In this document: positions 32,673 to 57,890 of the stretch, in pieces
How positions within the stretch are numbered: position 1 is the stretch's first letter
Layout of the letters: the number at the start of each line of letters is the position of its first letter
Source of the DNA: Candidatus Dojkabacteria bacterium HGW-Dojkabacteria-1
Lineage (GTDB): Bacteria > Patescibacteriota > Dojkabacteria > SC72
Direction: 5' to 3'
Length of the DNA stretch: 64,000 nucleotides
Assembly (NCBI GenBank): GCA_002840365.1
Contig: PHAO01000001.1
Coordinates: forward strand, 303,514-367,513
The notes under the pieces: generated by a model
What the model saw: only the letters and a program-made list of their open reading frames with translations
The model's database searches: none
Told to the model about the DNA's origin: nothing
Position numbers and translations under genes: made by a program

Positions 32673-32710
32673 CTTGTATGTAGATATTTTAGACTCTGTA
32701 TTATATCAAA

Positions 32711-33736
32711 TTACTTCCTATCAACTTTTGTATATATTGAAGAGGAAATCTCCTTTAGAATTTCTTGTAAGCTTTCAAAATTAGAACCTTTTGTCATTAC
32801 ACAAAGAAGATATGGTTTGGTAGGATGATAGATTATTCCACAATCGTGTAATTGTTTTCTTTCATAGATTAGTGCATCTTTATACTCTCTTTCTCCAAAT
32901 TTATTTGAAATTTTTACATTTTCTGGTATTCCTGCAGAGAGTCCATCATCATACTCGGTTTGTGAAAGAACTTTTAATGCTTTCTCTGACATCTCCTTAT
33001 TTAAATATGAAGCATTGTAAAGAATTCTAAAGAAAGAAGCATAATCTTTTACTGTCATTGTATTTTCATTTTCTGGTTCATATGGATTTCTTAGACCTAA
33101 ATCTGTGTATATTTTTGCTAAATTTTCATAAGTAGTTAATTGTTCAATGGGGTATAGAGCATCATTATCAGAATAGATAATTAATTGTTCTACTAATCTA
33201 TCAAGGGTATATGTTTTTCCTTCTTCAAGATGATTTTCAGGAAGGAAATTTTGTGTAGCGCCAGTTTCCTCCCTTGTGAACACGATACTCTTTTCTAAAA
33301 GGTCTTTTTGTGATTCAGCTAATTTGTAAGTAGCAATCATAATTGGAAGCTTCAAAAGACTTGCTGGAGAAAAGGTTTCATCTTCATTTATTCCTATCCA
33401 TGCACCAGAGTTAAGATCTTTGTAATAGATAGAAATATGGGAGATGTTACTAATTCTATAATTTCCTATTTTTTCATCTATATAGCTTTGTAAATCTTTC
33501 TCTAACTTAACTAATTCCCCTATTTTTGCAGAATCAGTAGTTTCAAAATCAATTAAAGGATTAATAAATTCATATCCTCCCTCTCTTGTTTGTTTGTAAG
33601 CAAAATTCTCTTCTGATGGAAAAAATACTTTGTAAAGGATTCCCAAAGTAAAGCCAAGTATAAAGAAGAAAAACATTAAGATATATGAAATAGTTTTGTA
33701 AAGTTCCTTCTTTTCGTTGTCTTTCTTCTTACTCAT
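32711..33736 (-). CDS. class A beta-lactamase-like serine hydrolase
   Basis: PASLLK (SxxK), SDN, NKFG in place of KTG, HDCGII; N-terminal TM. Confidence 0.85.
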   Translation of the reverse strand: MSKKKDNEKKELYKTISYILMFFFFILGFTLGILYKVFFPSEENFAYKQTREGGYEFINPLIDFETTDSAKIGELVKLEKDLQSYIDEKIGNYRISNISHISIYYKDLNSGAWIGINEDETFSPASLLKLPIMIATYKLAESQKDLLEKSIVFTREETGATQNFLPENHLEEGKTYTLDRLVEQLIIYSDNDALYPIEQLTTYENLAKIYTDLGLRNPYEPENENTMTVKDYASFFRILYNASYLNKEMSEKALKVLSQTEYDDGLSAGIPENVKISNKFGEREYKDALIYERKQLHDCGIIYHPTKPYLLCVMTKGSNFESLQEILKEISSSIYTKVDRK

Positions 33737-33743
33737 ATCATTA

Positions 33744-33771
33744 ATTCTATCTTTAAAGTATCAATTGTCAA
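33744..33771 (-). promoter_or_regulatory. sigma70 promoter of the serine hydrolase gene (leaderless)
   Basis: TTGACA-16-TAGAAT-7-ATG on the minus strand. Confidence 0.7.
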
Positions 33772-33793
33772 TGATTAATATTAAGAAGAGATA

Positions 33794-33822
33794 TTGCACA
33801 AAAAGAGAGCTTATAGTATAAT
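33794..33822 (+). promoter_or_regulatory. sigma70 promoter driving the putative ncRNA
   Basis: TTGCAC-17-TATAAT. Confidence 0.8.
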
Positions 33823-33828
33823 GTACGT

Positions 33829-34160
33829 GTTCATTTCAAACCCCGGCTCAACAGAGCCACCTCAGAGAGGTAAAAGGGGAACATTAAAAGGATAGGAGTT
33901 GGCAAAGAGGCTTCCCGCTCAGGGGAGATAGCCAGTCGGCACATCAACCGTCCCATAGAGGGCGCGCCGATTTCCAGTGTATCTGCAGATACATTGGAAG
34001 CTTCGAGGAAACAGTTTGTTAGGGACTGGCGTTATGTCATTCTCTTTCAAGAAAAAGGAAATCCAAGGCGTAGCTTTGGGTTCTGTTTCCCCTAGGGATA
34101 TTATTACAGGTAGAAGTCATCTACTCACATAAATCCCCAGGTCCATCCTTTATTTTTTTT
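33829..34160 (+). ncRNA. unidentified large structured non-coding RNA
   Basis: GC-richer region with no long ORF, about 10 nested helices with G-U pairs on the + strand, a closing helix AAAGGAT/ATCCTTT, a T-run, and an upstream consensus promoter. Confidence 0.72.
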
Positions 34161-34162
34161 CT

Positions 34163-34537
34163 TTACATTTCACAAGTCCACTCTTTTGGATAGCACTCTG
34201 AACAGAGGAATTTTAGATTTCTTCCTAAAGATGTTACACAGAATTTACTACAATATCCTATTACTTCCCCTGTATCCAATTTAAGAAAAGAGTATGGTCT
34301 AAGTGGTTTCTCACATGACCAATCGCATTCAACAATTCCAATATTCTCACATCTAAATATAATCAAACACTCTCCTTTCTTGTGTTGCTCCAATCTTTCT
34401 AAATCCATATATACCCCTAAAGGAGGATTGGTAGATTTTTCAAAAAAGTATTGAATATCATCTTTGTATTTATAGAGAAAGGAAAAAGAGAGTAGTATGA
34501 GTAGTGATCCGAATATGAAAAAATCTTTCTTATGCAT
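34163..34537 (-). CDS. Cys-rich membrane-anchored hypothetical protein
   Basis: N-terminal TM, nine Cys; TGaTATACT 7 nt before the ATG. Confidence 0.75.
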   Translation of the reverse strand: MHKKDFFIFGSLLILLSFSFLYKYKDDIQYFFEKSTNPPLGVYMDLERLEQHKKGECLIIFRCENIGIVECDWSCEKPLRPYSFLKLDTGEVIGYCSKFCVTSLGRNLKFLCSECYPKEWTCEM

Positions 34538-34565
34538 GATTAATAGTATATCAAAGAGAGAGAAA

Positions 34566-34880
34566 TTATTGTTGTCCTATTACAAGGATTGAGAAAAGAA
34601 TTAAACCTAATGTAATTATTCCAAAAATACCAACAGTTTTTAAGAAAAGTTTAACTGCTTCTTCTTTTTTACCTTCCAGAAAGAGTGTAATTGGTTTAAA
34701 ACAAAATATATATCCCATCACAGCTGCAGAGAGTGTAAAAAGGGATATGACCATAACAGGCATTATATATTGAGCTAATCCTGAATTCACTTCTGTTTCA
34801 TCTATTATGTTTATTGTAAATACAACGACTACAATATATGCCAATGCAACAAGGGAATTAACAAAAGGATTTTTACTCAT
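34566..34880 (-). CDS. small 3-TM hypothetical membrane protein
   Basis: Hydrophobic 104-aa ORF. Confidence 0.78.
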   Translation of the reverse strand: MSKNPFVNSLVALAYIVVVVFTINIIDETEVNSGLAQYIMPVMVISLFTLSAAVMGYIFCFKPITLFLEGKKEEAVKLFLKTVGIFGIITLGLILFSILVIGQQ

Positions 34881-35038
34881 ATCTATATTCTAGATTTATA
34901 CAAGGATTCAGTCAAGGAACTTCCCGTATATGACATCTTCCTGAACCTTAAGTTAAACTTTGAAATAGACTTTACAAAGTTGAATTACCTCTTATATGTT
35001 TGATGTATAATGAATAAGTTAAATTGATATAAAACATT

Positions 35039-35584: not shown

Positions 35585-35656
35585 CTCCGCGACCAGGACT
35601 CGAACCTGGAACCAAACGGTTAACAGCCGTTCGCTCTACCATTGAGCTATCGCGGA
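35585..35656 (-). tRNA. tRNA-Asn(GTT), CCA not encoded
   Basis: Acceptor TCCGCGA/TCGCGGA plus G73; anticodon arm AACGG-CT-GTT-AA-CCGTT. Confidence 0.97.
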
Positions 35657-56921: not shown

Positions 56922-57527
56922 CTACAATCCATAACTCTCATGAGTAACTAGTCTAAATTCTGAAAATGGGAAGTATACTATCCATGCTTTCCCCTTAATT
57001 CTTTCTTTTGAAATTGGTCCAAACTCTCTAGAATCTGAACTGTTTGGTCTGTTATCACCTGATACAAAATATTGTCCTTCTGGAACTGTAATACTTTGTC
57101 CTTCATGTATGTATGATCCACCATTTGTAATTACAGAGTCTGCTAGATAGTTGCCTTCATTTAATTTATCACCATTGATATATATGCTTCCATCTTTTAT
57201 CATTACTTCATCCCCAGGTATACCAATTACTCTCTTTATGAAATCCTGAGTATCAGAATATTTGAAGATAACGACATCTCCTCTTTGGGGTTCTGTAAAT
57301 CTGTAGGTAATTTTGTTAGCCATTAAGTACTCTCCATTTTTGTATGTAGGATGCATAGAATTTCCAACTACCTCATGTGGTGTCATTATGAAAAGATACA
57401 ATACAACTGCTAGTACTAATGCAACAACAACTGTTTCAATAAAGGATGAGATAAAGCTTCCAACAGATGCGAAAACTTCAGTTGCTTTAACCTTACCACT
57501 TACTTCACTCTCTGATGATTCGTACAT
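56922..57527 (-). CDS. lepB: signal peptidase I
   Basis: SMHPT, RGDVVIF, IKRVIG, GDNRPNSSDSR. Confidence 0.96.
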   Translation of the reverse strand: MYESSESEVSGKVKATEVFASVGSFISSFIETVVVALVLAVVLYLFIMTPHEVVGNSMHPTYKNGEYLMANKITYRFTEPQRGDVVIFKYSDTQDFIKRVIGIPGDEVMIKDGSIYINGDKLNEGNYLADSVITNGGSYIHEGQSITVPEGQYFVSGDNRPNSSDSREFGPISKERIKGKAWIVYFPFSEFRLVTHESYGL

Positions 57528-57552
57528 TCTTTTGGGGCATAAATTTAAGAAT

Positions 57553-57628
57553 TGGTACCGCTACGGGGAATCGAACCCCGGTTTACAGGATGAAAACCTG
57601 TCGTCCTAGTCCACTAGACGATAGCGGC
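57553..57628 (-). tRNA. tRNA-Glu(TTC)
   Basis: Acceptor GCCGCTA/TAGCGGT plus ACCA; anticodon arm ACAGG-TT-TTC-AT-CCTGT. Confidence 0.97.
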
Positions 57629-57647
57629 TTACCTGAAGTAGATTTTA

Positions 57648-57890
57648 CTACACTAAAGCCTTTTTGGAAAGTTCTTTTAGGAATTGTTGTTCCTCTTGGA
57701 AGCTAGCTCTTTGATATTCATTTAACTCTTTGTTAAAGATATATCTTCTTTTACATTTACACTCTACCATTTCTCTTCTTTCTGAGATTTTTCCTATTCT
57801 TTTAGCTTTATCCAATGGGTTTGTACATCCTACACACATTCTTTTTTCTAAAAGTACTTTCTGGAAGGGAGATACAAGTTTCTTATACAT
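57648..57890 (-). CDS. small zinc-ribbon-like hypothetical protein
   Basis: 80 aa from MYKKL; CVGC and CKC motifs; the longer ORF call overlaps tRNA-Leu. Confidence 0.7.
   Translation of the reverse strand: MYKKLVSPFQKVLLEKRMCVGCTNPLDKAKRIGKISERREMVECKCKRRYIFNKELNEYQRASFQEEQQFLKELSKKALV

Follow-up and report, generated by a model that had tools for sequence, protein, structure and literature searches.

Between two oppositely oriented genes of Candidatus Dojkabacteria bacterium HGW-Dojkabacteria-1 lies a gap that raises a simple question: does it hold a gene of its own and, if so, for what kind of product? The genome (G000) is a single contig (C1) of 733,750 bases, with 33.9% GC and 98.5% completeness, and the window analyzed here is a stretch of 64,000 nucleotides of it (C1:303514-367513). 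The gap is bordered by a divergent Beta-lactamase2-family gene and by a convergent gene for a 124-aa protein (Table 1), to which no family could be assigned and for which an Atlas search gave no usable match. We find that the locus is probably a stand-alone plus-strand gene for a folded RNA of ~325 nt that falls outside the catalogued families.

Putative transcription unit

The promoter named in the preliminary description of this DNA, TTGCAC and TATAAT separated by a 17-nt spacer, is present as described. Its bare consensus is not above chance regionally (15 sites observed, 15.6 expected). Genome-wide, a looser -35/-10 pattern is confined to 22 sites, the RNA promoter among them, and the exact motif TAGTATAAT is common to this promoter and to the regions upstream of 4 of the 46 tRNA/tmRNA genes in the genome. 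Transcription would start near 33829. The run of T residues reported earlier was likewise found after the closing stem of the predicted fold. The terminator scan detected no ordinary hairpin terminator at this end, and the 3' end is placed here because the closing stem and the T-run are both present. Since the upstream gene is divergent and the downstream gene convergent, the view that the RNA is not a 5' leader holds.

Predicted fold and anatomy of the RNA

The plus strand of positions 33825-34160 folds with -121.2 kcal/mol (z -6.15, with 0 of 100 shuffles as good) and the minus strand with -108.9 kcal/mol (z -3.85), whereas under DNA parameters the two strands fold alike (-52.0 and -49.8). 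G-U pairs account for 11 of the 111 pairs in the plus-strand fold versus 6 of 101 in the minus-strand fold. The earlier assignment of the RNA to the plus strand agrees with these fold scores. The region is also GC-richer than the genome, as had been noted: its GC content of 0.48 is the highest among 65 ORF-free gaps of at least 250 nt, after four gaps near the contig ends that, judging from their position beside tRNA-Ile/Ala, are presumably the rRNA region. When the 22 most GC-rich gaps were compared by folding, the RNA gap (z -5.3, 12 shuffles) scored more strongly than the RNase P RNA (-3.4) and tmRNA (-4.7) of the same genome.

The overall architecture consists of a 5' three-way junction, a 265-nt domain closed by a stem of 7+3 pairs, and eight T residues (Table 1). 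All helices listed in the preliminary description, including GGAAACAG 34007/CTGTTTCC 34083 and CCAAGGC/GCTTTGG, were located at their positions, and most have pair probabilities of 0.64-1.0; TTGGC/GCCAG (0.05-0.28) and TTCCC/GGGGA (~0.4) turned out to be weak. The former competes with GGC 33909/GCC 33931 (0.55) and UG 33900/CA 34138 (0.44). A perfect 7-bp complement, GCCAGUC 33931/GACUGGC 34024, is unpopulated in the nested ensemble and costs ~9 kcal/mol as a nested pair. The locus is present as a single copy, and the longest complement to the RNA elsewhere in the genome is 14 nt.

Table 1. Features of the RNA locus and its surroundings (window positions).
Feature	Position	Strand	Basis or remarks
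Sigma-70-type promoter TTGCAC-17-TATAAT with TAGTATAAT motif	33794-33822	+	TTGCAC at 33794, TATAAT at 33817-33822; putative transcription
Domain 1: outer stem GUUC/GAAC and three-way junction CCCC 33841/GGGG 33876, GGCUC/GAGCC, ACCUC/GAGGU	33827-33884	+	Pair probabilities 0.64-1.0
Domain 2: multi-way junction closed by AAAGGAU 33887/AUCCUUU 34145 and GGA/UCC	33887-34151	+	Predicted fold
Ambiguous arm: UUGGC/GCCAG, or GGCU/AGCC with UCCC/GGGA	33899-33935	+	Competing probabilities 0.28, 0.55, 0.44
Arm UCGGC/GCCGA with inner hairpin	33936-33970	+	Probability ~0.8
12-bp hairpin	33972-33999	+	Probability 0.69-1.0
Three-way arm GGAAACAG 34007/CUGUUUCC around two hairpins (34015-34051, 34060-34082)	34007-34090	+	Predicted fold and pair probabilities
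Long irregular arm with GGGAU/AUCCC and GGUAGA/UCUACU	34091-34141	+	Predicted fold and pair probabilities
T-run behind closing stem, presumed 3' end	34153-34160	+	Sequence; not scored as a standard terminator
GTG frame of 51 codons within the RNA, unlikely to be a gene	33977-34132	+	ORF list; start codon lost in X12 variant
338-nt block missing in G003, starting at the -35 box	33794-34131		Bounded by ATA at 33791-33793 and 34129-34131
14-nt 3' tail of the RNA left in relatives without the rest	34135-34148	+	Identical in G003; same junction in X9 contig
Divergent neighbor: Beta-lactamase2-family (serine hydrolase) gene	32711-33736	-	Own promoter at 33771-33744
Convergent neighbor: 124-aa Cys-rich protein with hydrophobic N-terminus	34163-34537	-	Intact in G003, which is without the RNA
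tRNA-Asn, end of variable island	35585-35656	-	1.4 kb from the RNA locus

Comparison with catalogued RNA families

At the gathering score, Rfam models matched only tRNAs in the entire window, and a search of 901 nt around the RNA at E values up to 10 gave nothing above 20.6 bits. The Rfam check that had been proposed thus leaves the RNA outside every family, and the models for RNase P, tmRNA, SRP and group II introns have no match at the RNA, as the lack of their signatures had indicated. Among the housekeeping RNAs to be sought elsewhere in the genome, a canonical RNase P RNA (C1:169101-169401, 160.8 bits) and a tmRNA (C1:37524-37933, 116.2 bits) were found; for the other two, ssrS and ffs, the 6S and large SRP models gave no match in the genome.

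Individual assignments were rejected as follows. The RNA has neither a match to the RNase P model (RF00010) nor a P4 signature, and its alignment to the true copy is not above shuffles. ARAGORN and Rfam detect no tRNA-like ends or tag frame of a tmRNA (RF00023), and there is no SRP RNA (RF01854) model match or helix 8 motif; the Ffh/FtsY domain (PF00448) was not found in the genome, with a control positive in 14 of 14. The fold is branched and not the rod with a central bubble of 6S RNA (RF00013), whose model does not match (control positive in 5 of 14). A group I or group II intron was dismissed given no Rfam match, an intergenic location with its own promoter, and no RVT_1 in the genome. No ribozyme family in Rfam matches the RNA, which might still be a new ribozyme. 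Four likenesses that had been considered, namely the hairpin ribozyme, cobalamin riboswitch, HEARO RNA and group I P4-P6, found no backing in Rfam and were abandoned. In the openly accessible literature searched, which included two 2026 preprints, no Dojkabacteria RNA of this kind is described. The RNA is new in the sense that no catalogued family fits it; this does not in itself demonstrate a new mechanism.

A highly diverged raiA-motif RNA is a quite improbable identity for the locus. The raiA sequence and consensus were taken from the supplement of PMC10861870 and two real loci, and the defining parts from the available portion of PMC12968392. The ends of the RNA pair in an interrupted stem, and two motifs, GCCAGUCG (33931) and CCAGGUC (34137), are ordered and placed as in raiA RNA. 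On the same strand, 2.1 kb downstream, there is an hpf/raiA gene and, farther along, prfB; KhpA- and KhpB-like KH proteins, reported partners of raiA RNA, are encoded in the genome. Against this, the RF03072 model scores true raiA RNAs at 145-152 bits and gives no match at E up to 10 in the 901 nt around the RNA or at E up to 1 in the genome. Of nine short raiA motifs, at best three lie where they would be expected. Missing are GGGGUCNAA, P4 and the motifs for PK2 and for the six-pair PK1, which joins the P3b loop (the PK1 loop) to the PK-L linker (UAG..GUAAG). The P1 stem of raiA RNA has GU and GGU bulges; in the candidate CCAGGUC is rightly placed, AGU stands opposite GGU, and the 5' GU-bulge motif is lacking. 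When aligned to two raiA RNAs, the candidate scores no higher than shuffled sequences do (z -0.6 to 1.9). The ordered raiA motifs were seen in 0 of 20,000 cases, an unfair test since the pattern was written after seeing the sequence, and a two-motif pattern recurs at 96 other places in 400 genomes of the phylum, the 49 screened being due to chance. The raiA model had no match in 150 genomes of the class, where its control was found nowhere either, and two raiA patterns gave nothing in viral contigs. Without a model match or the defining parts, and with alignments no better than shuffles, the raiA assignment was dropped.

Several other structured gaps of this genome were observed along the way. 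A long rod-shaped RNA with an internal bubble (C1:681585-681725; L320; gap z -7.6, no Rfam match) lies just upstream of tRNA-Thr and is a candidate for the missing 6S RNA. An RNA of ~125 nt with paired ends and a T-loop-like 3' arm (C1:551770-551890; L321) is called by neither ARAGORN nor Rfam, and two hairpin-dense gaps (C1:202434-202730 and 725615-725956; L322 and L327) have no Rfam match. At C1:291065-291139, a tRNA was called with a UUA anticodon.

Distribution, loss and genomic island

The same DNA search that detects RNase P RNA in 38 of 40 relatives detects the candidate RNA in none of them, and the RNA is gone from the closest relative, G003, whose RNase P RNA is 98% identical. The proposed housekeeping role is untenable for these reasons; in addition, RNase P and tmRNA are provided elsewhere and no Ffh/FtsY was found. 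In G003 the matches to window positions 32700-33793 and 34129-34608 abut with a 3-nt overlap. We interpret this difference as a deletion, which is simpler than an insertion, because what G003 retains of the RNA (Table 1) is one half of the closing stem, its 3' strand, and the half with which this strand pairs falls within the missing block; given this remnant, insertion with an ATA target duplication was judged less likely. One X12 contig links 33692 to 34171 with 118 letters between, joining the flanking genes.

The surroundings also differ among relatives. In G001, G002, G005, G009 and G021 the Beta-lactamase2 gene is present with different DNA upstream, and G006, G007 and G008 have no match to this gene or region. 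In G003 the space from the 124-aa gene to tRNA-Asn holds an HTH gene and a gene for an IrrE/M78 peptidase (G003:C5:5500-7100; L332, L336). Such a gene pair is typical of integrative elements, and the G003 DNA beside the tRNA bears what we take to be a resemblance to the tail of a recombinase gene. As its flanks and gene content vary across relatives, the region is, to judge from sequence, a variable island that counts the RNA among its cassettes. From the same comparisons the RNA appears to be optional, an accessory element that is restricted to a small (sub-genus) clade and lost in some of its lineages. Repeated loss fits weak selection; it also fits a decaying remnant.

Two further observations concern the neighborhood. 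The Beta-lactamase2-family gene of G002 (L028:1501-2361 and L029) is apparently broken by a frameshift. Window positions 34918-34954 form a 37-nt stretch that is also found in G005, G021 and several X11 contigs and is possibly an attachment-site relic; in X9 and X10 contigs the tRNA-Asn sequence directly follows at 34919-34921, these relatives being without the 179-aa gene.

Metagenome variants

Variants were obtained from raw metagenome contigs of four runs (X9-X12), none of which spans the whole RNA; holes in their coverage carry no weight as evidence. The contigs were matched at 80% likeness and are therefore attributed to related organisms. Those from X9 over 33793-34046 (254 nt) and X10 over 34015-34204 (190 nt) are identical to the locus, and the RNA sequence is therefore real and not an assembly artefact. 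The X11 contig (34052-34223) has five substitutions and one gap, and the X12 contigs differ by five substitutions and 10 gap letters over 33809-33885 and by 13 substitutions and one gap over 33872-34012. Among the eight X12 substitutions listed inside the RNA, five are unpaired, one (at 33977, in the 12-bp hairpin) keeps its pair by turning G-U into A-U, and two more lie in the same hairpin. Four X12 substitutions fall in unpaired positions of the arm 33936-33970, and the X12 insertions and deletions affect the first hairpin of domain 1, on either side, as well as loops. Four of the listed substitutions, at 33978 and 33980 (X12) and at 34083 and 34084 (X11), break a predicted pair unless the partner has changed as well; the X12 partners are too close to the end of the contig to be listed, and the X11 contig does not cover the partner strand. 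The pattern leans towards selection on structure, short of a covariation test.

Searches for distant homologs

No full-length homolog was found in any collection searched. DNA searches returned only matches of 17-43 nt, in 11 of 99 genomes of the family and 5 of 400 genomes of the phylum, none of them a real homolog. A sequence-only model (R1) had hits at 12-16.5 bits in 13 of the 99 family genomes, and the 14 places printed are AT-rich and unrelated; a structure model (R2) had none among 39 relatives, 150 class genomes and 150 phylum genomes. Distant homologs may be missed by both models because each was built from a single sequence and works behind a seed filter. Pattern searches gave 10 matches in 9 of 220 class genomes, versus 5 for a reversed control, none backed by R2, and, for the two-motif pattern, the 96 places in 60 of the 400 phylum genomes, with none of the 49 screened being supported. 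Similarly, none of 41 pattern loci in metagenome contigs was supported, and searches of species genomes produced 0 and 2 loci, both due to chance. In viral contigs 12, more than 120 (80 retrieved), 3 and 26 loci were obtained, none of which extends past the seed; the best one falls within a 344-codon frame. Phage and plasmid collections held no match to the RNA.

Function and alternative explanations

The explanation that we favor, which seems to us about equally likely to be right or wrong, is an accessory, island-borne, stand-alone structured RNA whose shape enables it to act in trans. RNA polymerase would make one transcript of ~325 nt, from ~33829 to the U-run behind the closing stem. Its gene would have entered the sub-genus clade in a mobile island ending at tRNA-Asn, beside the 124-aa gene, and would later have been deleted in some lineages. 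By analogy with what has been proposed for ornate RNAs of islands and prophages such as ROOL and GOLLD, the folded RNA may serve in trans as a protein-binding scaffold or decoy, and would act neither by coding nor by pairing with the mRNA of its neighbor.

Patchy presence, repeated loss and a tRNA-bordered island would also be expected of an orphan RNA of a mobile or RNA-guided system (an omega RNA, or one derived from a retron or intron) whose protein gene is gone and which today either acts in trans or is decaying, and the size and multi-branch fold presumably fit such RNAs too. This reading is nevertheless rather unlikely: the RNA has no Rfam match to HEARO or intron families, no TnpB/Cas12f domain or RVT_1 was found in a one-contig genome that is 98.5% complete (with working controls), the unit is flanked by neither terminal inverted repeats nor long direct repeats, and it exists as a single copy. 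A search of the genome for IscB had no match, with its control found nowhere either. We consider it improbable that the locus is instead a tightly folded mRNA for a small peptide, one in which, as type I toxin mRNAs do, the 3' end folds back on a ribosome-binding site. On its 5' side the closing stem does read AAAGGA, 6 nt and a TTG that opens a 10-codon frame, AGGGA and 8 nt precede an ATG at 34034 that opens a 32-codon frame, both sites are paired, and the genome holds several units of promoter, small ORF and long hairpin. But those other units have strong, open AAGGAG-type sites and the RNA locus does not; the peptides it could encode are not hydrophobic; the listed variant changes, read by hand, are non-synonymous; and the 51-codon frame, whose start codon is gone in the X12 variant, has no homolog among proteins of 28-90 aa. 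The units with ribosome-binding site, short ORF (three of them Cys-rich) and long terminal hairpin were seen at C1:237005-237314, 453246-453560, 685330-685780, 57353-57715 and near 551470, and the four scanned have no Rfam match.

Little probability attaches to the locus being no functional RNA at all but a scrap of foreign, GC-richer DNA whose folding is accidental or left over from past function. Its loss in kin and the lack of a homolog in the genome collections searched would suit a scrap; the fold score, the strand asymmetry, and a promoter and T-run that match at the two ends would not, nor would the fact that two or more diverged populations have kept it, with changes mostly in loops. 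That the RNA is a cis element of the convergent 124-aa gene, whether antisense antitoxin or transcription barrier, is very improbable. The genes lie tail-to-tail, with 11 nt from the closing stem to the stop codon, but in G003 the 124-aa gene is intact although the RNA is gone, which largely refutes this reading; the RNA does not overlap the coding sequence, and a barrier needs neither 330 nt nor a promoter. A type I antitoxin RNA was rejected on the intact gene in G003 and on the length of the longest outside complement. A bolder model goes beyond the explanation that we favor and is, in our view, unlikely: the RNA might be the first known representative of a class of its own, borne on mobile islands of CPR bacteria, that combines a compact tertiary core with a switchable arm, and its role might be that of a ribozyme or of a decoy in conflicts with phages or the host cell. 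In the candidate for this arm, GCCAG could pair in three ways, one of which is a long-range helix of 7 bp. New RNAs that are large and structured are seldom found, and several have proved to be catalysts or parts of basic machines.

If the favored explanation is true, even minimal episymbionts with a genome of 734 kb trade RNA genes as accessory cassettes. G000, with the RNA, and G003, with the RNA deleted, make a natural pair that is ready for comparison. For now the value of the finding is limited, as it consists of one full sequence and a predicted fold, and the RNA is dispensable.

Comparison with known systems

6S RNA (RF00013), a family not detected in this genome, is free-standing with its own promoter, as is the candidate RNA. 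Class A RNase P RNA (RF00010), including the diverged CPR forms as described in the available part of PMC8172020, resembles it in size, paired ends and multi-way junctions; the candidate, however, is dispensable and without the P4 signature, and the genome has a canonical copy. With the raiA motif RNA/ModT (RF03072), as far as the accessible parts of PMC10861870 and PMC12968392 describe it, the candidate shares the interrupted end stem, GCCAGUCG, the 3' CCAGGUC, nearby hpf/raiA and prfB genes, and probably a transcript of its own, but it differs in having an extra 5' domain, in being dispensable and in its confinement to a small clade.

ROOL and GOLLD RNAs, according to the available part of PMC12286853, are prophage-borne, occur near tRNA islands and have no known function; ROOL is abundant yet non-essential in one strain. 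The candidate RNA does not belong to them, as it has no model match and its size is outside the range of 500-900 nt: with ~325 nt it is half as long as ROOL (659 nt, against more than 800 nt for GOLLD; PMC12286853, available part). RNA-only multimers and pseudoknots are features of ROOL and GOLLD, whereas the candidate is known from its sequence and predicted fold. As to mobile DNA, the candidate has no copy in the viral and phage collections and sits in a variable island, with tRNA-Asn nearby and the HTH and IrrE genes in G003. In the part of PMC12286853 that was available, ROOL and GOLLD nonetheless offer the closest working parallel to the candidate RNA, being elaborate stand-alone folds carried in mobile DNA near tRNA genes and non-essential where tested.
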